NCBI GenBank assembly: GCA_004022145.1
Contig: RCNU01000013.1
Strand: one strand, 5' to 3'
Length of the DNA: 64,000 bases
DNA from: Paecilomyces variotii
Lineage: Eukaryota
In this document: positions 3,455 through 42,541 of the stretch, piece by piece
Layout: the number at the start of each line of letters is the position of its first letter
Numbering within the stretch: position 1 is the stretch's first letter
Notes under the pieces: generated by a model
Told to the model about the DNA's origin: nothing
Database searches by the model: none
What the model saw: the letters and a program-made list of their open reading frames with translations, nothing else
Position numbers and translations under genes: made by a program

Positions 3455-4510
3455 ATGACCAGCAGCCGCTGCTCCAATTCTCGCATCTTTGATATTTTCG
3501 TTTCTTCCTCCATGAGCACTGAGCGTATTTCCCTGCTTCGTGTGCCGTTGTAGAGCACCATGTTTATTATTATTATTATGTCTTTGCCCCCTTTTTCCAC
3601 TGGTACATATTACAAGGACTGTTCTCTTGTGGTTTTTCTCATGCGACAAGAAGAGTCACATTTTGTGCATTTTGCGGATCAAAGCCTTTGTTCCCCGGGT
3701 TTTAGCAGGTTATCGATTCGATGGGAAACCCCATTCAAGGAGGGTACAAGATACTAGAGATCAAGCCATCATTGGGGAGGGAATAGAATGGGACAGCATT
3801 GGATCGGATTGAGCCTGTACGAATGCGCCCTTGCATGTATGTAGGTAGCCTAATTAGGTAGATAGCGAAAAAAGAACCAGCCTTTTTCAGCGTGGAACAG
3901 CTCTTGATAGAATTATTTTGGCAGTATTGGCTATTATTGTAAGAACAGGATTTCTGAGAGTAACTTAACCGTGTCAAGTTCAACCTTACTGTTGATTCAG
4001 ACGTCTGAAGAATACTTGAACTACCTAACGTTGAGAAATGAGAAGTAGCCGAACGATCGAACCTACGTCGATACAGTAGTTAATACCTCATCTCAACAAA
4101 CTCCCATCCACTTCTCCTATGTCCGTTTAGGCAAAATGCCATACTCTATACTTCCTAGAAAATAAAATACATAGCCCTTAATAACTAAACTACGGAGAAT
4201 CTTCGATGCCAGGTCATATATTCGGGGGGTTTTGTGGCAGGAAAAAGGGGAAGTTTTATTGATCTTTAGTCTGCTTCTAATGCTTACGATATATTCTATC
4301 TGAGACAACGATATCTCAAGGCAATTTCATTTCATTTACTGAGTCCGAGAGTATTTGATAGAGCTTTCTGGAAAATGCTGCTGTCGGAGTTTGTTTGGAA
4401 GTTTGTCGTTTTTGGCGAGCGTGAATTAATCCATTTCCGAAGAACTCGCTTCTCTGGCGCTCTCGCGACGGAAATGACTGTAGATTTCATGAGTTAGCAT
4501 GCTGTGATGG

Positions 4511-32234: not shown

Positions 32235-34720
32235 ATGGCTGCCGAAGGACAGAGTCCGGTCTCGAAGAAGACCACCAAACCAAAGTCCAGATCGAGCGCA
32301 GAACATTTGATGAAGCGCGTTTCGAGAGCTTGTTTGCATTGCCGTCAGCGCAAGTCGAGATGCGATCTGTAAGTCTGCTCTGGCCGAGAGACCCCGCGCT
32401 CAAGACAAGCAATTCTGCATGACAAAAATATTATTCTTTCCATACTTAGATGCGCTACTGACCAGAACACAGAGATATTAGTCCTAATCCAGGAACACCA
32501 CCGTGCCAGCGCTGTCTACGAGACAAGCGCGAGTGTGTCCTAGGCAGTTCCAACAGAGGTGGGCGTCGTATCCGGAAGAACAAGATCAGCAACATCACAC
32601 CAGCTGCAGTGCCTACACCGACGACGACGGTGCAATTGGAGGAGACATCCAGTTCTCCCAATTCGGATCGCTCTCACTTTCCTGTTTATCCCGGATCTTT
32701 CGTCTACGTCCAGTCGGAACATGCCGTGGCAAACGGGACAACTGCAAAGGATGACGAGATTGCATCGAATGCTGACAGTGCGATTGAGGAGGTCCCCAGA
32801 AACCCTTCTGATGCATGGCAGTGTCTGAGCAGAGTTGCCAACCGAGGTGCGGAGACTACTGATGCGGAAAGACTTGAAGACCGTCAGTCTGGAGACTCCT
32901 CGGATCTCCCGTCAACAAACGGGACCCAGAACGGGCAAAGAGTGGACTACCATGCGAGGAGTCGCATCAATGAGTATACGCTCGTCCAAAACCGTTCGCT
33001 CGACCCCGAGACTGTATGGTTTCTGGTGAGCCGCTATGCTGAGCATTTCCATCCTTATTTCCCTCTAGTTCCAAGGAGGTACTTTGACCGCAACGCTCTG
33101 GGCACGTTCGCAACAAAAGAGAAGCATCTACTAACAGCAGTTCTGACGATTGCTACCAAAGACCTCGTGGAGCGCCCAGATATCCATGAACATTGTTCGC
33201 AGTATATGCATGAGCTGATATCGGGAATCGCGGCCGGTGCGGACTGCGGTGTTGAAGCCGTTGAGGCTCTACTTCTTCTGGCGGAGTGGGAGCCGCATGG
33301 GCTACGGCCAGGAAAGACGCCTGTTGGAAGAGGAGAAGAAGATCGAGCAGCGTGGATGCACGTTGGTCTTGCACTGCGCACAGGATACTTCCTCGGTCTG
33401 GACCGGACATCGTTTCGAGGCGACTGCGCTGGCGATCCACAAACTGATGAGCGCAAGCGCTTGGCATGGGCCAACTGTTATATCTCAGATCGACTGATAT
33501 CAGTCCGCATTGGACGGGCATTCTGGTCTCGAGGACCCGGCCCGATGACGGGGCTAGTCAGCCAGGACTTCCCTTCTCTGCAGCCCATGAATGAGGGAGA
33601 CGAGGACTATGCGAACATCTTCCAAGCCTCGTTGGACCTGACTCAGCTTTATGGAAACGTACATGATGTCCTCTATTCTGGAATGCGTACGAGCAATCAG
33701 ATGATGCTCATGGGAGACTACGTTAAATATGCGGATGACTTCCGCTCAGGCATCCTACGGTGGAACCAAAAATGGGGCAACTTGGCTTGTACGATAATTG
33801 TGGTCTTTTCTTTCTGACGATGAGCTAACAGTGTGACAGGCTCCCACCATATCAAAGCGACACTCCGAATGTCTTACGAGTACCTGCGGCTTTACACAAA
33901 TGCATTTGCATTCCAAGCTGCAATCTCCCAGACGCTTGTGTCCAAGCCAAAAGATGATGTCCATCCACTGAGAGAACATCTCAGAACTACCTTCAGCAAC
34001 CTCTCATCGATGCAAGATGCCCGTTTCATATATGATTCGGTCGACGCTGCTAAAGCCTATTTGAACCTCCTAGTCAGGGACGTGGACCCTGAACGTCACC
34101 TTCGCTATATGCCTCTGAGGTTTTATTTGTATGATTTCTCGTTTTATGTGTGAAAATTCCTACAACTGACTCCGCTATAGTTACGGTATATATGCCGCCG
34201 TTTTCCTATACAAGGCAAGTAAATGTGCTGCAGTCCAACCGCTTCACGAAATCTGACCGCTAGCTAGGCCCGCTCTTTCGGTGTATTACGACCGAAAGAG
34301 GAACTTGTTGTTCGAGAACTCGTGAGCAGAACGACAGAAAAGCTCAATCGAGCAAGTCTGGGACCCGACGACATTGGGTCTCGATACGCTCGACTTTTAG
34401 AGCTCCTGTGGAAACCGAAGTCTACTATTACCGCACTACCATCTCCTCAGGAAACCCACCTCAGCAATGATGTTCCAGTGCCTGCACCCATACCAAGTGT
34501 TCCTGAAGCGGGTTACATGCAATTCAGCCCTGCCAACGATTTCTCCTGGCTTGACCTCGAAGCAGTTGGGGATTACGTTGACCCCGAACAGATGACTGGA
34601 ACGGATATCCTTGGTTTTGACTCCTTCCAGAGCCCGTCTGTCTATACTGCTGGGCAGGAACGTTCATTATGGCAAGCGCCAGCGTGGGCCAATGATATGT
34701 CCGCCAATCTGCCCTTCTGA
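32235..34720 (+). CDS. Zn(II)2Cys6 transcription factor with fungal-specific TF domain, multi-exon
   Basis: CLHCRQRKSRCD|..PPCQRCLRDKREC (intron 32369-32472); FHPYFPL, VEALLLLAEW, CYISDR middle domain. Confidence 0.93.
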
Positions 34721-34849
34721 GCCTACAATCGGCGCCTCCATCGATTTGGTCGCGTGGAGCTGTCCATCTATCATCAGCGCGATCTTGGTGCTACTAGGCA
34801 CCATCGGAGCCAACTGCCTTGTTTGACAGTGCCTGCTTATTGAGCTGAC

Positions 34850-34930
34850 CCGGGGAGAGCCCCGTGGGGGACTGCGGGGAGAGACTAGGCGGGCTGCCTT
34901 CGGGACACTTTTAACCGAGAACTACCCCGC
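34850..34930. promoter_or_regulatory. Cluster of CreA-type SYGGRG carbon-catabolite-repression motifs upstream of the SDR
   Basis: CCGGGG 34850, GTGGGG 34864, GCGGGG 34874, CCCCGC 34925. Confidence 0.5.
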
Positions 34931-35109
34931 GACAGCCCCTCCTACCTGGTAGGTACTGTACAATACGAGTGCGGGATATCCGTCAAAAAGGCCCAAGAGT
35001 AAGCGGAAATTGAAGATCGCAGACAGTAGCTGGAAAGGTCAATTGTACAGGCGATCACGTCTGACTCTACGATCTTCTCTCGAGCATCCAACATCGCCGC
35101 CAGAACCCA

Positions 35110-35995
35110 ATGGCCGATCTCAATGAAATCAAGGGCCGCCTCGCCCTGATAACAGGAGCATCTGGAGGGTAAACGATCCTTCAATGTGTCCACATATTGT
35201 TACTGACGGACGGCACGACTGCGGATCCAGAATTGGGGCAGCTTGTGCTCGCCAGCTTGCGCAACGCGGAGTCCATCTCGCCCTGACATACTCTAGCAAT
35301 TCAGCAGCCATAAGTGCTCTCGCGGATGAATTGAAATCGCAGCATGCTTCCAAGGATGGCAACTCATCTCTCCGCATCTCCGTGCACCAGCTGGATGTGG
35401 CTTCTGCGGAGCAGATCCAGGAAATGTTCGCGCAGATAGACAAAGAGCATGGCCAGCGACCCGACATCCTGGTTTCGAATGCTGGTTATGGCAAACGGAT
35501 CCCTCAGGTCTGGGATATCTCTCTGGAAGAGTTTGACTACACGATCAATGTGAATCTGCGCGCCTCTTTCATCCTTGTCAAAGGTGTAGTAGAACACATG
35601 AAAGCTCAGCGATGGGGTCGGATCATTTTTATGTCCTCGATAGCTGGCTACGGCGGTGGGATCAACGGATGTCGTGAGTCATGACCTGCCCTGCTCCTAC
35701 TGTACATATAGCTAAACGGCATGCTCAATACAGATTACGCATCCTCAAAAGGCGGCCTGACCGGGATGATGAAGAATCTCGCAACCCGCCTAGCAGAACA
35801 CAACATCAGCGTCAACGACGTCGCTCCAGCCATGATTGGGGATACTGGCATGATTCCCGGTGCACAGGCAATCCCAGAGGTTGCGGCCAGCATTCCCTTG
35901 GGCAGACTCGGTACACCAGCAATGTAGTCACGATGCTCGCCACGACAGGATATATGACCGGACAGAGTCTGTTATTAGCTGGCGGTCTAAAATGA
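35110..35995 (+). CDS. SDR (3-oxoacyl-reductase-like) with a C-terminal frameshift; introns 35169-35230 and 35674-35733
   Basis: LITGASGGIG, VSNAG, YASSKGG; the frame stops at 35927 (GRLGTPAM*), while the expected tail NVVTMLATTGYMTGQSLLLAGGLK* lies in another frame to 35995. Confidence 0.85.
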
Positions 35996-36231
35996 ACAAT
36001 TAATACCCGCTGGATATAGAATATCATCCCATTCCATGTTCATTCCCGGAATCTGCTCTTTTGATCGCATCTCATTATTCTATTTCGTCACGGTGGTATG
36101 GCATGGAGCATGGAGTATCGCATAAGTCATCACATCAAGCAACTGCTACAATCAGTCGACTCTTCTCACTCAACGCCCCTAACATCAACTCCTCGTTCTC
36201 CAGTAATGCTGTACAATCCGCGTATTCATCT

Positions 36232-37771
36232 CTACAGCTAAACCCGTAAAAGTTCACCATTAGCATAATCAATCTTATCCACAACAACTATCATTATAGC
36301 CTGGACAGCAGCACTGGACATCTGCTCACCTGATCAGCACTCCCACTCTCAATAATCACCTTCACGACCGGAGCGCCCTTCTCATCCACCCCTTTCCCAG
36401 CCAAGGTAAAGGCTCTCTCGCCCCCTCCCTCCGCAGCCAATTGCACACGATGCGTGACCACCTTCTCCTCGACAATGCCGAACTTCCCACTCGCCATCAA
36501 CGCAATAGCAGCCGGGTATGCGTATCCGTCGTAGCGGAACACGCCGATGATATCGACCTCGCGCAACGCAGCCGCTCCCACAGGGAGCGTTTGCACAGGA
36601 TGACCCATTCCGATCTGCACGACAACTCCGCCTGCCGCGGCAGCATAGATCCCTCCTTGCACACATGCAGGCGCACCAGTGCAATCGTACACACGGCTAA
36701 ATCCCTGGGGAACACCATGCGTCTCCTTCAGCGTCTTTGCGAGAGATTGAGCATTTCCCAGCGCGTAAGCGACCTGCTCAGCGTGCGGAGCATCCACAGC
36801 CGGAGGCGGGGTTGACGAGCGTGTGATAAGGTGCGTTTTCAACCCAAGCTCAAGCGATTCCGCAATCTTGAGTCTCGAGGCATCGATATCCGCGACGATG
36901 ATCCTCGTGAAATTCTCCGACGTAGCCAACGCAGCAGCAAGAAGAAGACCAATCGCCCCAGCTCCGAAGACCAACGCCGCCGTCTCTTCACCTAGGGAAC
37001 TGGCAAGCTTCACGACCTCCTTACTAGGCGGATGCGACCTCCTGATCGCATGCAGACACACAGCCAGAGGCTCCAACAACGCACCACCAGCAAAAGACAC
37101 GGAATCAGGCAACTTATGACACATCTCAGCAGGATGATTCGTGAATTCCATCAACGTGCCATCGAAATGCGGATATACTTTCGCACTACTTCTGAACTTC
37201 ATGTCCGGGCAGATATTGTATCTGCCCTGTTTGCAGAGGGAGCATTTGCGGCACGGGATGCCGACTTCGAGAGCGACGCGGTCGCCGATCTCGAGACTCG
37301 TTACGTCTGGTCCGAGGGCTATGACAGTGCCGGAGGACTCGTGGCCCAGACACATAGGCTCGCGTACGACAAAGTCACCATTGCGGCCGTGGTTGTAGTA
37401 GTGGAGGTCTGAACCGCAGAGGCCTGTGGCGCGGATGGCGATTTGGACTTCGGAGCCGGTGGGTGAGGGGATCTCTCGAGACTCCTGGACGGGATGATTA
37501 GAATTTTCTTTTGTAGACGTATAGTAACAATATCCATCAAAGAAGAAGAAATGTAGTTATATGATATTTGAAGAAGCAACGGATAGGCACATCACATTGG
37601 TTGTTCGCGTGGGGAGTTTAGGATAACCATAGATCCCAAAATCGAGAAACAGAGGAACAGAACAGAGCAGAACAAAATATGGGGTATCCATACCAAGCGC
37701 AGATCCTTAGCACCATGAAGCACGAGCGCCTTTGAAGGCTTACTTCCTTGTACTGTCGTGGTGGATGCCAT
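36232..37771 (-). CDS. gluE: Zn-dependent polyol dehydrogenase (sorbitol DH family), probable L-idonate 5-dehydrogenase; introns 37485-37693 and 36238-36329 (retained form ends at 36294)
   Basis: LHGAKDLRL, GLCGSDLHYY, LGHESSG, CxxCxxC(7)C, EPLAV, GAGAIG, GVFRY. The gluE assignment is inferred from cluster context. Confidence 0.82.
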
Positions 37772-39192
37772 TGTTGGTAGTACTTCTTTCCTTTCCGTCT
37801 GTCTTGCACAATAAGTATTCGCTAGTGTTCCTTTTTCTTTTTGTCCTGTTCCTTTCCCCACGAAATAGATAAATAGATAATCAAGCAAGCAAGTGAGAGA
37901 AAGATGCTAACTAGCTAGCTAGCAAACAAGAACAAAGAAGGAAGAGCGAACGAATGCATAGGTATAGGTCCCGTTTGCTGCTCCACGATCAGGTGCTAAT
38001 TAGCTAGCATGAGTAAGTAACCAAGTAGGTAAGTAAAGTGATGTGATGTGGAAAACGAAGCACACGGATTGTGTCAGTGGAGCTCAATTTAGTTAGCAGT
38101 ACAGAGTAGTAATTTACAATCCATCTGAGCTATTTACTCTAGAAGAAGTCAAGCTCAGATAGGTAAGTAATTTACGCATCGGCAATTGAAACAGTAAGTA
38201 GTATAGGACAACGTGGGGGTGGCTAATCAGGTGGTTTTGTTACCCCGCAGTGAGCGATACACAAAAGTCTGTACTCTAGAATAATATATCCACCGTTGTA
38301 ATTATCAGGGATAACGAATAAATCCAGCAATGGGATTGTATGCTAGATGTAATATGTCATGATCATCTGGTTTCCGAGTTTTCTTTTCTTGCATTGGCAG
38401 GGATGTAAGTAATATGGAATTACTCTGTCGGCTATCGAAATCCGCGCGGAGTTGGACTTGGATCTGTCGGTATCTGTCGGTATCAGGTGTAATGAATGGG
38501 AGATGGTTAAACCTCTCGGAGTGTTTCCGGAAATATGTTGAATGTTACAGATGATAATACTCTAACTAATGATCAGCCGCTGGGTAAAATATATGGCTAA
38601 TGTAATTCCCGTCTGGTAACTGTTGTTCCGCAGATTTGCTGGTCGACGGGGATTGTCGGTAACAATTGCAGTGTTGATATTGTGGTTGCAAGTGAGAGAT
38701 CAAGACAATAATTAAAAAGAGATGAATGTAGAGGACGTGCTTGAGAGGTTTTGAAAAATAAAAACTCCGTAAAGTAGTTAGATCAGATCCGGGGCAAAGT
38801 ACGCCGTCCATCTAATTATTACCCCACGCAACCGTCCGCCACTCATAGTGGATATTCGAAGCTGTCCTCAACGATCTCACCAACCGTCCGGGAATTGGAC
38901 GAGGTCTTCACGAGAAAGGCGGACTTGATGCGACACTAGAGAGTGAGGATTGCGAGGCCAGGCATGGATAAACTCGTGGAGGACGCGATTCCCCGTCCAT
39001 ACCCTGCGCTATCTTTTATTGCTCTCTCTTTGAATACAACTTGATCTTTGTTTTCTCCTTCAATATCTCCCTCTCTCTCTTTGCTTCACAATCTTCCTCT
39101 ATCCCTGGGTCGTGGCGGTAGATAGCTCACCCGTCCTTTGAAATCCTCTGTCTGGACTCCCCGCGTGACATCATTTCGAATATTCTTTCACG

Positions 39193-40603
39193 ATGTCGTC
39201 CCGAGCAGCCCTCCTCATCGGAAAGATCACCCACGCCCGGAAGGAGTGGGAGGCTCTCTCCTCGACCCTGACTCTCAAGGTGAGGTCGCCAGAATGCAGT
39301 CGAGAAACTAAGGAACATGCTGACCCAAAGGAACAGGAATACCCTGATGGGAACCGGGATGACTTTATCAAGAACTGCCAGAGCGGACAGTACGACGATG
39401 TCGTTGCCATCTACAGATCCAATGCCTCAAACAAGGTCTGAATAGTCGAGAACATGGAACTCCAGGAGGGCTAACAGCAGGCGGAAGGTAACGGGGCCCT
39501 TTGATGCGGAGCTCCTATCGGTTCTGCCAAAATCTCTCAAGTACATCTGCCATAACGGAGCTGGTTACGACAATATCGACATTGCTGCGTGCTCGCAGAA
39601 AGGTGAGGCATTGAGGCTTTTTTGTTTTGTTTTGTTTTTTGTCTATAGATTTCTTCGCAGTCTGCGGTCTACAAACCGGAGATGCTGGGGCGGCCAACCA
39701 GGAACTCATACTAATCGCTGTCCTGTCCCCCAGGTATCTCGGTTTCAAGCACTCCCGTGGCGGTCAACAACGCGACAGCAGATGTCGGCATCTTCCTCCT
39801 GATCGGTGCCTTGCGCCATGCTTATGTTCCTCTTTCCGCAATCAGAGAAGGTGGGTGTCTTTAACAGCAGTAGTCCACCCCAGACAACCAATACCTGACA
39901 TGCGATGGACAGGTAAATGGCAAGGACAGACCACCCTCGGCCATGATCCTCAGGGCAAGGTTCTGGGGATCCTGGGTATGGGCGGCATTGGTCGGGTAAG
40001 ATCTTATCATGCAACGAATATTGCGACAAGCGTTACTGACAGATAATACTAGGAAATGGCCCACCGTGCAAAAGCCTTTGGCATGAAGATCCAGTACCAC
40101 AACCGCTCACGGCTTTCTCCCGAACTAGAGGGAGGCGCTACGTACGTGTCCTTCGATGACCTACTGGCCACTTCCGATGTCCTCAGTTTGAACCTCGCCC
40201 TCAATGAGTCGACGCGCCATATCATTGGTGCCAAGGAGTTCCAGAAGATGAAGGAAGGCATTGTTATCGTGAACACTGCACGTGGCGCGCTCATTGACGA
40301 GAAGGCACTTGTCCAGGCACTTGAATCTGGAAAGGTATGACTCGTCAAATCTTGGATGTGACAAAGGTTGAATCTATGCTAAGCGTCGCATAGGTCAGCT
40401 CCGCAGGCTTGGACGTGTACGAGAACGAGCCCGAGGTCGAAGAGGGACTCCTGAAGAACCCGAAGGTCTTCTTGCTCCCTCACATCGGAACGATGACATA
40501 TGAAACTCAGAAGGACATGGAACTGCTCGTGCTGAACAACCTGCGCTCCGCGGTGGAGAAAGGAGAATTGATCACCCAGGTGCCGGAGCAGAAGAGTAGG
40601 TAA
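39193..40603 (+). CDS. gluD: D-isomer-specific 2-hydroxyacid dehydrogenase, probable 2-keto-L-gulonate reductase, multi-exon
   Basis: HNGAGYDNID, TADVGIFL, GILGMGGIG, YHNRSR, VNTARG, GLDVYENEP, LPHIGT. The gluD assignment is inferred from its divergent position next to the gluE-like gene. Confidence 0.8.
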
Positions 40604-41010
40604 CAAGAAGCTCAGCAATGAGGCAAATGGCAATTGAAATTTAAGAGATTTTCGGTGAAGGGGACGTGATGCTGGAGTATCTGGGGTCTTCATATTTCCC
40701 TGCAGTTATTTAGCATTATATTCGCGGGCTAGTTAGACCACCTAGATAGCAAATATGATTTCCCTTCCCATTCTAGGCGGACGGGGTGCTGCTTTATGCT
40801 CAGCGTTGTTCACGGAATACTGTTGATTATGGTGTACTAGCGGACTACTTTCCCATTTCGGCAGTCTGACTGCCAGGACTCACAGATTTGGAAACGGCCT
40901 TTGTTATTAATAGCTTCGGGTCGACAAAAGTACTTTGTAGGACAGAAAGATTCCTTGTAACTGAGATTCTCTACTATGATTTCTCTTTTAGTTGCGGAGC
41001 AGCAAGCGTA

Positions 41011-41368
41011 TTATCATACTCTTGAGTGACCACATCCATAACTAAACCCGGCTTCCTGAAGCGACCGGTGCAGCAGTTCGGTTGGTTCCGGTCTTAGTCC
41101 CATCATTGATAAGCTGCCGAGCATAGTTAATTTGAAGCTTCTTAGAAAGTTGCGGGTATCTATAATTCTTCTCAACGAAGTGAACGGTAGTTACTTACTT
41201 ACCTCCAGATGTCTACATTCCACGTGACCGGGGACACTTTCCTAAGACTATGAATTGGTGTGTGCTGATAATCAATCATTAACGAGGGGCGATTATGATT
41301 TTCTTATCTAGTTGGGTCTGTTTTAGCGTACGCAAAGGGCGATATTACACCGGTATGGTGAGAGATAA
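41011..41368. promoter_or_regulatory. Cluster of AreA-type HGATAR motifs upstream of the dioxygenase
   Basis: TTATCA 41011, TGATAA 41107 and 41266, TTATCT 41304, AGATAA 41363. Confidence 0.5.
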
Positions 41369-41476
41369 GAAGAATGACTGATATACTACGTAGGTATCTT
41401 GCTGCATCGCAATTTGATATAAGGAAGACGACGAGTCTCATTATTTATTTGGTTTTTGTGGACAGGAACTATCATC

Positions 41477-42541
41477 ATGCCTTCAGCCATTGCCCCTGCA
41501 AGTCTTCGTCGTGTTGATTTTAACGACCTTGACAAGGTCATCTCTACAATTGAACAGGACGGTGGTGTGATCCTGACTGGATTCACGACTCCCGAAGTGG
41601 TCGCGCAAGTCAACTCGGAGGTTGAGCCTTACTTGAATAACGACAAGCCTTGGAAGGTTAGTTAGTATATGCCAAATTGCCGAAACTTCCTCTTTTCCTA
41701 GCTCACCATGTCGACGGCAACAGGGCAAGCTTTTCCCTCCAGAGACCCGCCGTTGCACACGACTGTTAGGCCGCAGCAATACAGCTCGTCGCGAATGGGT
41801 CGGCAGCGATAGACTATTCGATATCCTAAACCATTTCCTGTCCAAAACCACTACTATTTTCTACGATGATGTACCAACCACGCACACAACCCTTCCCATC
41901 TTGTCCACAGCGGCCACGATTGATGTCAGACCAGGAGCCATTGGCCAACGCATCCATCGAGACGACAAGGTTCATCATGTTGACCATGAGGACATGACCA
42001 GCACTGGCTATAAGCTGGGTTCGGACGTTAGTATGTCGCTTTTGGTCCCTGGTGTCGAATCTACAGAGGAGAACGGTGCCACATTGGTAAGTTGACAAGC
42101 GGAGCTTTTCCTTTCACCGCGCCCCCAAAAACACCAAACAGGACTAATTAGAAACAAAATCAGGTCTTACCTGGCTCCCACCTTTGGGGAGACAAGCGTG
42201 CTCCTCGCCGAGAAGAAGCCTCCCGGGCGACCATGGTCCCAGGCGAAGCGCTTCTGTTCCTAGGCTCCATGTATCACGCTGGCGGCGCTAATCAGAGCAC
42301 CAGCACCAACCGTCCAGTGCACGGCTTGTTCTTCTGTCGCGGTACGCACCGTGCAGAGGAGAACTTCTACCTCGAATTTCCCACGGAGGAGGTTCGCTCG
42401 TGGACGGAGAAGGAGCAAATTCGTACTGGGTACAATATCTCGTCTCCGAATCTGGGCTTTATCGACTTCGTCAGTCCTATGCATATTATCAATGGTAGAT
42501 GGAAGCCCGACGAGGCTCAATACTATGAGGATTTGGATTAA
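41477..42541 (+). CDS. PhyH-family 2-oxoglutarate/Fe(II) dioxygenase; introns 41657-41723 and 42087-42163
   Basis: DGGVIL, QRIHRDD (HxD), ENGAT.VLPGSH, GSMYHAGGAN (distal His), downstream Arg, EENFYL. Confidence 0.9.

Follow-up and report, generated by a model that had tools for sequence, protein, structure and literature searches.

In a 64,000-nucleotide (nt) stretch of the Paecilomyces variotii genome (assembly GCA_004022145.1, contig RCNU01000013.1; hereinafter, the window), a sugar-acid dehydrogenase gene on the minus strand, which we denote gluE-like, contains a terminal intron that is removed from mature mRNA and whose first codons, when read in frame, end in a canonical peroxisomal targeting signal type 1 (PTS1). 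This intron (intron 2) is real: the isoform assembled from RNA in two independent studies encodes a protein of 412 amino acids (aa) that ends in ADQL. Retention of the intron would add a short tail that ends in SRL. The locus is a candidate of a known type, namely, a splicing-dependent PTS1 in an NAD-dependent dehydrogenase. Its polarity is reversed, and for its pathway no such switch has been described before. That the switch is used, with the spliced main form cytosolic and the retained SRL form peroxisomal, is a reading that we put forward tentatively and would rate somewhat short of an even chance.

Terminal intron and its hidden tail

The gene model consists of the following parts, with coordinates counted along the window.

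37694..37771, minus strand: coding part of exon 1 (MASTTTVQGSKPSKALVLHGAKDLRL), from translation, with the 3' border taken from the RNA joint; the same as the start of the P. variotii protein P0127
37485..37693, minus strand: intron 1, 209 nt, GTATGG...CCAG in the sequence; RNA contigs of runs X1, X2 and X3 skip 209 nt
36330..37484, minus strand: exon 2, the body of the medium-chain dehydrogenase/reductase (MDR) up to ...ESGSADQ, from translation and Pfam; covered by spliced RNA contigs
36238..36329, minus strand: intron 2, terminal, 92 nt; one contig each of X1, X2 and X3 joins 36237 to 36330
36324..36329, minus strand: 5' splice site of intron 2, GTGAGC in the sequence, read as Val-Ser if the intron is retained
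36297..36329, minus strand: in-frame tail VSRCPVLLSRL, present only in the reading that keeps intron 2, from translation and the 422-aa public models
36297-36305, minus strand: PTS1 codons TCC AGG CTA (SRL), from the sequence
36288..36296, minus strand: TAA TGA TAG, three in-frame stops in a row at which the reading of the retained intron terminates, from the sequence
36259..36264, minus strand: branch-point-like GCTAAT of intron 2, ~20 nt upstream of the 3' AG, placed by the fungal CTRAY consensus
36238..36239, minus strand: 3' splice site AG of intron 2 (TTTAG), from the sequence
36232..36237, minus strand: coding part of exon 3, CTG TAG (Leu and the stop of the spliced mRNA), from the sequence and RNA; the window exons together with this Leu make up the 412-aa model P0133

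Around the site, the minus-strand sequence is GGG AGT GCT GAT CAG / GTGAGCAGATGTCCAGTGCTGCTGTCCAGGCTATAATGATAG...TTATGCTAATGGTGAACTTTTACGGGTTTAG / CTG TAG, and intron 2 sits between the second-last and the last sense codons of the gene. From its 5' end, the intron itself reads GTGAGC AGA TGT CCA GTG CTG CTG TCC AGG CTA TAA TGA TAG...TTATGCTAATGG...GGGTTTAG, and CTG TAG AGA follows. It has the GT...AG borders and the branch-point-like element of a spliceosomal intron; GCTAAT is its putative branch point, and intron 1 has a comparable TCTAAT at the same relative position. The spliced frame stops at TAG (36234-36232), below which the 3' untranslated region (UTR) of the gene continues, and the predicted C-terminal peptide of its 412-aa product is VIIESGSADQL, with no PTS1 (DQL is not a match). 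The unspliced frame reads ...ADQVSRCPVLLSRL* (...ESGSADQVSRCPVLLSRL), with the predicted C-terminal peptide VIIESGSADQVSR; it runs 11 codons into intron 2 up to TAA at 36296-36294, followed by TGA TAG, and its end, SRL*, matches the pattern [SAC][KRH][LM]. The preliminary description of this locus, which was made from the letters alone, had proposed a 92-nt intron at 36238-36329 whose splicing gives ...ADQL* and whose retention gives SRL*; every letter and coordinate of that intron agrees with the window sequence and the RNA joints, and translation yields both ends, the latter being a canonical PTS1.

For the RNA evidence, contigs of four runs were aligned to the window: X1 (study P1), X2 and X3 (one sample, study P2) and X7 (a metatranscriptome). 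All contigs of X1, X2 and X3 are 100% identical to the window. In one contig of each of these three runs, and hence in two studies, positions 36237 and 36330 are joined and 92 nt are skipped, with the ends CT..AC on the plus strand, that is, GT..AG on the gene strand. The joint of intron 1, 37483 to 37693 (209 nt, cut +1), is present in the same contig of X1 and in separate contigs of X2 and X3. Because intron 1 has been removed as well, the contigs of these three runs represent spliced mRNA. Run X7 comes from a related strain, ~96% identical, and its contigs run through both introns; a contig of this run was considered as a case of specific retention of intron 2 and rejected because intron 1 is kept too, which points to DNA or unprocessed RNA, and X7 was used as strain sequence only.

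Public protein models are inconsistent over 36232-36329, minus strand (P0003, P0004, P0123-P0133 and P0137). Among the 14 named distinct models, which fall into two 90% clusters, 11 read through intron 2 and are 420-422 aa long; the other three use the intron and comprise 412 aa, ending in ADQL or ADQV. P0127 equals exon 1 of the window plus unspliced exon 2 (422/422 identical), and P0133 is the spliced product of the window. The read-through models predict a constitutively peroxisomal SRL/SKL enzyme, a prediction that the RNA evidence contradicts. Taken at face value, most of the public annotation would mean that there is no intron at all and that the gene encodes a constitutive PTS1 enzyme of 422 aa ending in SRL, as the straight reading of 11 of the 14 models, including the window-identical P0127, has it. 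Given spliced contigs that are 100% identical to the window, come from two independent studies and have exact GT..AG borders, with intron 1 removed in the same contig of X1 (in a separate contig of X2 and X3), we consider this explanation extremely improbable.

Chance background, variation and orthologs of the tail

Over the six frames of the window, a canonical [SAC][KRH][LM] tripeptide precedes 14 of the 4236 stops (0.33%), and SRL precedes a stop once; this single case is taken to be the gluE-like locus, the scan having given a count and not a position. A triple stop comes after 28 of the 4702 first stops in the window, and the one at the end of the hidden tail could indicate a true termination site, either past or still in use. 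Readthrough of the spliced stop (TAG AGA TGA) yields a frame with no PTS1; readthrough as an alternative route to the tag was rejected on this context together with the corresponding frame of Thermoascus (...MSIQ*), also without PTS1.

Within the P. variotii / P. lecythidis complex, six tail haplotypes were found, all in frame and 10-11 codons long, with Val-Ser invariant in 6/6: VSRCPVLLSRL (the window), VSRSPVLGSRL, VSRSPSLVSRL (also in the X7 strain), VSRSPVASKL, VSRSPVVSKL and VSKSPVLESTL. A canonical PTS1 closes five of these tails (SRL in three, SKL in two), whereas the sixth ends in STL. Identity of the protein body to the window ranges across the haplotypes from 98.5% down to 91.4%, and the canonical tails include lineages with a body identity of only 91-93%. 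In the X7 strain, substitutions affect none of the 12 positions of SRL and the stop and none of the 6 positions of the 5' splice site; they affect 4/18 positions in the linker codons, 3/56 in the rest of the intron, 26/709 in the coding sequence (22 of them at third positions) and 2/172 in the 3' UTR. Judging by this comparison of sequences, the linker is unconstrained or even hypervariable.

The linker codons (36306-36323) are a substitution hotspot in X7, and the same positions vary among the six haplotypes. The 3' UTR (36060-36231 and below) is more conserved than synonymous sites in the same strain (2/172), which also lacks 31 nt of intron 1 (37657-37689) and has 13 extra nt in the 5' UTR immediately before the ATG (37780).

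Homologs in other genera were examined in the best 120 of 1822 significant matches. P. variotii proteins come on top of this list, with 98% and 92% identity, followed by orthologs from Thermoascus, Aspergillus, Penicillium and Talaromyces at 65-80%. In 51 of these 120 listed orthologs, an extension follows the ...VKVxIE motif, and two lack the motif. Leu is the last residue of 43 of the 51 extensions; these 43 end in ASL (12), GSL (9), SRL (5), GRL (5), SSL, ANL and NKL (2 each), SKL and ARL (1 each) and four singletons; two of the seven canonical ends are the P. variotii read-through models themselves, and the counts are not phylogenetically independent, most coming from Penicillium. PMC3487989 (available part) gives ASL as a PTS1 of plants outside the canonical pattern. 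With linkers that vary, a constant final Leu and a small residue at -3, the extensions have the look of a PTS1 under selection, as far as sequence patterns can suggest it.

At the DNA level, a metagenome scan yielded 6 useful fungal loci of 47, and the comparison covers these Penicillium-type and Thermoascus-type loci; the other 41 are distant (one 5' fragment at 76%, the rest at 23-37% identity). In the Penicillium-type loci, the tag is open, and no intron interrupts the sequence from ES to the stop: L001 ends in ...ESKLESRL*, and L004 and L006 in ...ESKTQPSRL*. The Thermoascus-type loci (L002, L003 and L005) have TGA right after ES, then 15 more sense codons and a second in-frame stop (4338-4388), at the same distance as the intronic stop of the window. 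Over the 51 nt after ES, the window and Thermoascus are identical at 24/51 positions at a fixed offset, a value matched at 0 of 299 other offsets and in 1 of 5000 shuffles; the tail region is therefore old collinear sequence. The Thermoascus arrangement fits either a nonsense mutation in Thermoascus or the loss of a stop in Paecilomyces.

Alignments of the 3' ends, by MAFFT and with long gaps, gave conflicting placements of the intron. When deletion of intron 2 was compared with deletion of other 92-nt blocks, 23-34 of the 48 controls fitted the 3' regions of Penicillium and Thermoascus equally well. Local alignment to the Penicillium UTRs reached a score of 39 (shuffle mean 24, maximum 36-37) and included only window sequence downstream of the intron; homology of the intronic tail to the Penicillium tails could not be established by these alignments. 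The ends of L001 and L004 and exon 3 of the window have CTG TAG AG in common, which is suggestive, if unproven, evidence on the origin of the intron by insertion or by in situ intronization. Given that a canonical tripeptide would arise inside an existing intron with a chance of ~0.3%, the most economical history puts the open PTS1 first: an open C-terminal PTS1 like that of the Penicillium orthologs would be ancestral, and the intron would have arisen later, turning constitutive targeting into splicing-dependent targeting.

Gene identity and neighbourhood

The product of the gene contains ADH_N (3.9e-26) and ADH_zinc_N (3.6e-14) domains (Pfam), the architecture of MDR zinc dehydrogenases. The orthologs from black aspergilli, P0039 (A. 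tubingensis) and P0040 (A. brasiliensis), are 75% and 74% identical to it, respectively; both start with MTVNST and end with ESGSDA or ESGDA. By hand translation, the A. niger gluE primers listed in the accessible part of PMC5306355 encode the N-terminus MTVNST... and the C-terminus ...ESGDD*. Because the ends of P0039 and P0040 resemble those encoded by the primers, the orthogroup is taken to be that of GluE, a comparison that goes through the primer-encoded ends and the black-Aspergillus orthologs rather than the A. niger protein itself. On this sequence evidence, it is well supported that the gene is the P. variotii ortholog of A. niger gluE (L-idonate 5-dehydrogenase). The name 'gluE-like' had been given in the preliminary description, and the MDR domains, the identity of 74-75% to the black-Aspergillus proteins and a divergent 2-Hacid_dh gene bear it out.

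The neighbouring genes, as seen in the region 32462-42541, are as follows.

39193..40603, plus strand: gluD-like D-2-hydroxyacid dehydrogenase gene with several introns, from open reading frames (2-Hacid_dh_C 7.2e-32, 2-Hacid_dh 2.2e-08)
35127..35995, plus strand: convergent short-chain dehydrogenase (SDR) gene, approximate limits, from open reading frames (adh_short 1.8e-25)
~32.4-34.7 kb, plus strand: fungal-specific transcription factor (Fungal_trans)
41.4-42.5 kb, plus strand: PhyH-like dioxygenase

The gluD-like gene is divergent and starts ~1.4 kb from the gluE-like ATG. In A. niger, gluD and gluE share a bidirectional promoter, according to the available text of PMC5306355, and because the 2-Hacid_dh gene at 39193 lies on the opposite strand, the published head-to-head arrangement appears to be kept. 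The N-terminus of the gluD-like product, MSSRAALLIG, resembles the MPAALLI encoded by a primer in the same portion of that source, and its identity as GluD is putative. At the end of the gluD-like gene, AAG AGT AGG TAA (40596-40606, plus strand), the stop overlaps AG/GTAACA, which resembles a 5' splice site.

The A. niger GluF protein is a 265-aa SDR (PMC5814732), and the neighbouring SDR gene might be gluF-like. Its tail-to-tail arrangement is also seen in a Thermoascus-type (L002) and a Penicillium-type (L001) locus. RNA contigs of X1 (5289 nt), X2 (1053 nt) and X3 (1274 nt) extend past 36050 into the SDR gene; the convergent gluE-like and SDR transcripts possibly overlap each other, and if they do, splicing of the terminal intron could be affected by the antisense RNA close by.

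A possible splicing-dependent switch and its alternatives

If the switch is used, a minority of transcripts would escape splicing, be exported and be translated; having no downstream junction, the retained transcripts should be translatable. Pex5 would import the SRL-tagged subunits, and untagged subunits of the oligomeric enzyme might come along, which would leave much of the enzyme in the cytosol and a small pool in peroxisomes. The spliced product (...ESGSADQL) should be cytosolic, like A. niger GluE (...ESGDD). The GTGAGC and CTAAT of intron 2 depart from the fungal consensus; as a cause of leaky splicing, this departure is a weak argument, because the branch site of intron 1 is much the same. 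Localisation of the enzyme to both cytosol and peroxisomes is a plausible hypothesis, and the redox-shuttle idea that came with it in the preliminary description has no direct support. The more specific proposal, that regulated retention of the intron sends L-idonate 5-dehydrogenase, an enzyme of the D-glucuronate pathway, to peroxisomes by means of an ancestral tag that is still open in Penicillium, seems unlikely to us.

A functional hidden tag is supported by the rarity of canonical tripeptides before stops in the window (14/4236), by the SRL or SKL of five of the six haplotypes and by the final Leu of 43 of the 51 ortholog extensions. Several observations weigh against a switch in use. The spliced isoform is the sole form of mature mRNA seen in the X1-X3 contigs, and unspliced 36238-36329 was found in none of them; these are Logan contigs, which drop rare variants, such that a minor isoform would not show. 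Conservation in orthologs, which the preliminary description had proposed to check, gives a mixed picture: SRL or SKL is kept in five of the six haplotypes, and the Penicillium tag is open rather than intronic. The STL haplotype (P0135, 96.6% identical in the body) has a non-canonical end, and in Thermoascus, the nearest genus sampled (L002, L003 and L005), there are neither intron signals nor a PTS1, the downstream frame ending in ...MSIQ* without GT/AG at the corresponding sites. Among the 120 listed orthologs, 67, including most of those from Aspergillus, stop at ...VKVxIE plus at most one residue. No PTS1 is present at the ends of the gluD-like (...EQKSR*) and SDR (...AGGLK*) neighbours. 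Substitution in the linker is no slower than at neutral sites (in X7, 4/18 versus 22 third-position changes in 709 nt of coding sequence); the unchanged SRL in X7 would be expected by chance in about 1 in 3 cases at that divergence; and the survival of SRL/SKL at such shallow depth is compatible with no selection too. As a rough estimate, with one R-to-K lineage against one R-to-T lineage, the population data are neutral and lend no net support either way.

Some of these observations would fit a relic, that is, a Paecilomyces 3' end that became an efficiently spliced intron and thereby lost targeting, with the intronic SRL now decaying and any retained transcripts being noise. Exclusively spliced mature RNA in three runs and two studies, a linker hypervariable to the extent of 4/18 in the X7 strain, one lineage already at STL, and the ability of Thermoascus and most Aspergillus to do without any PTS1 all favour this explanation, as does the finding that the 51 nt behind ES are collinear with the 3' region of Thermoascus (24/51) and are hence old sequence rather than a recent insertion. 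However, SRL or SKL with the stop survives in 5/6 haplotypes, including the deepest sampled split, the change from R to K is the conservative one expected under constraint, and splicing is never complete, so that some tagged protein would be expected anyway; we regard a relic as possible but doubtful. Chance alone could also be at work, with a constitutive intron whose first 11 codons happen to end in SRL* and with the Leu-ending extensions of Penicillium being unrelated. Dozens of introns lie in a fungal window of 64 kb, and at 0.33% per stop one chance match somewhere is neither negligible nor very unlikely. The case was picked by the earlier reader after inspection of the sequence, and the alignments did not link the intronic tail to the Penicillium tails. 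Against this, the match lies in the only family among the genes of the window with a Leu-ending, PTS1-like pattern in its relatives (43/51 extensions among the 120 listed), SRL to SKL is maintained across lineages, and the tail is followed by three in-frame stops (28/4702 in the background). We therefore find a mere coincidence distinctly unlikely.

A switch in use, the reading that we tentatively prefer, has counterparts in known systems. In Yarrowia lipolytica, two 3' splice sites 4 nt apart in MDH2 give rise to cytosolic and peroxisomal malate dehydrogenase (MDH), respectively (Kabran et al. 2012, PMC3372373, available part), and the MDH genes of Lipomyces starkeyi and Aspergillus fumigatus yield the cytosolic form when their last intron is retained, and the PTS1 form when it is spliced or a distal site is used (PMC7491326, available part). 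As far as these parts of the two papers go, the gluE-like gene resembles MDH in that an intron at the extreme 3' end of the coding region of an NAD-dependent dehydrogenase decides on PTS1 and the isoforms differ by a few residues. In MDH, splicing creates the PTS1, whereas in the gluE-like gene splicing removes it and retention supplies it from the intron; furthermore, the MDH isoforms have been seen in RNA and localised experimentally, whereas the gluE-like gene is known from spliced RNA alone, and the enzyme and the pathway differ. Cryptic PTS1 in fungal glycolytic enzymes were reportedly described by Freitag, Ast and Bolker (2012, Nature), among them splice events of GAPDH and PGK. A precedent of the kind on which the preliminary description drew is in print: the available part of PMC4207609 summarises fungal PTS1 isoforms of glycolytic enzymes that result from alternative splicing or stop-codon readthrough. 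What these enzymes have in common with our candidate is a hidden C-terminal PTS1 by which a small part of an otherwise cytosolic enzyme would become peroxisomal; the enzymes themselves differ.

In animals, LDHBx, a form of lactate dehydrogenase (LDH), carries LDHA into peroxisomes by piggy-back, and only 1.6% of LDHB is targeted (PMC4359377, accessible text); because untagged subunits are imported in this way, a small tagged fraction is enough. Like LDHBx and MDH1 (available parts of PMC4359377 and PMC4207609), the gluE-like product would be an oligomeric NAD(H)-dependent dehydrogenase with a low-abundance PTS1 isoform. The route is different: LDHBx and MDH1 depend on translational readthrough, whereas in the gluE-like gene it would be intron retention, the spliced stop giving no readthrough PTS1. 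With A. niger gluE, the gene shares the orthogroup by best hits, the MDR domains and the head-to-head position with a second dehydrogenase gene; unlike the unspliced P. variotii frame, A. niger GluE ends, by its reverse primer, in ...ESGDD* without a PTS1 (PMC5306355, available part), and the P. variotii activity, NAD+-dependent oxidation of L-idonate to 5-keto-D-gluconate, is predicted from the sequence. The Penicillium orthologs (L001 and L004; P0041, P0067 and P0068) represent the same enzyme; behind ...VKVIIE[SGN] they carry a short additional stretch whose last residues are SRL, ARL or GRL, or else the weaker ASL or GSL. Unlike in P. variotii, the tag is open at the C-terminus with no intron, and targeting would be constitutive. 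Peroxisomes go unmentioned in the accessible text of the gluE paper (PMC5306355) and in the gluF paper (PMC5814732), and literature searches on idonate or sorbitol dehydrogenase with peroxisomes, and on RNA-seq of P. variotii introns, gave no report of such a switch, judged from the titles listed, which for idonate concern mostly plants or unrelated subjects (supplements were outside the scope).

Should the switch prove genuine, a sugar-acid dehydrogenase would join MDH, LDH, GAPDH and PGK among the NAD-dependent enzymes with a hidden PTS1, and L-idonate / 5-keto-D-gluconate might be a new NAD(H) redox couple or shuttle for the regeneration of peroxisomal NAD+, or else part of a peroxisomal branch of uronic-acid catabolism, in Eurotiales. 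It would also be a terminal-intron switch with polarity opposite to that of MDH and would imply that intronization of the 3' coding end can make an open PTS1 conditional. A single orthogroup would then present a natural series in which the evolution of targeting could be followed, with no tag in Aspergillus and Thermoascus, an open tag in Penicillium and an intron-hidden one in Paecilomyces.

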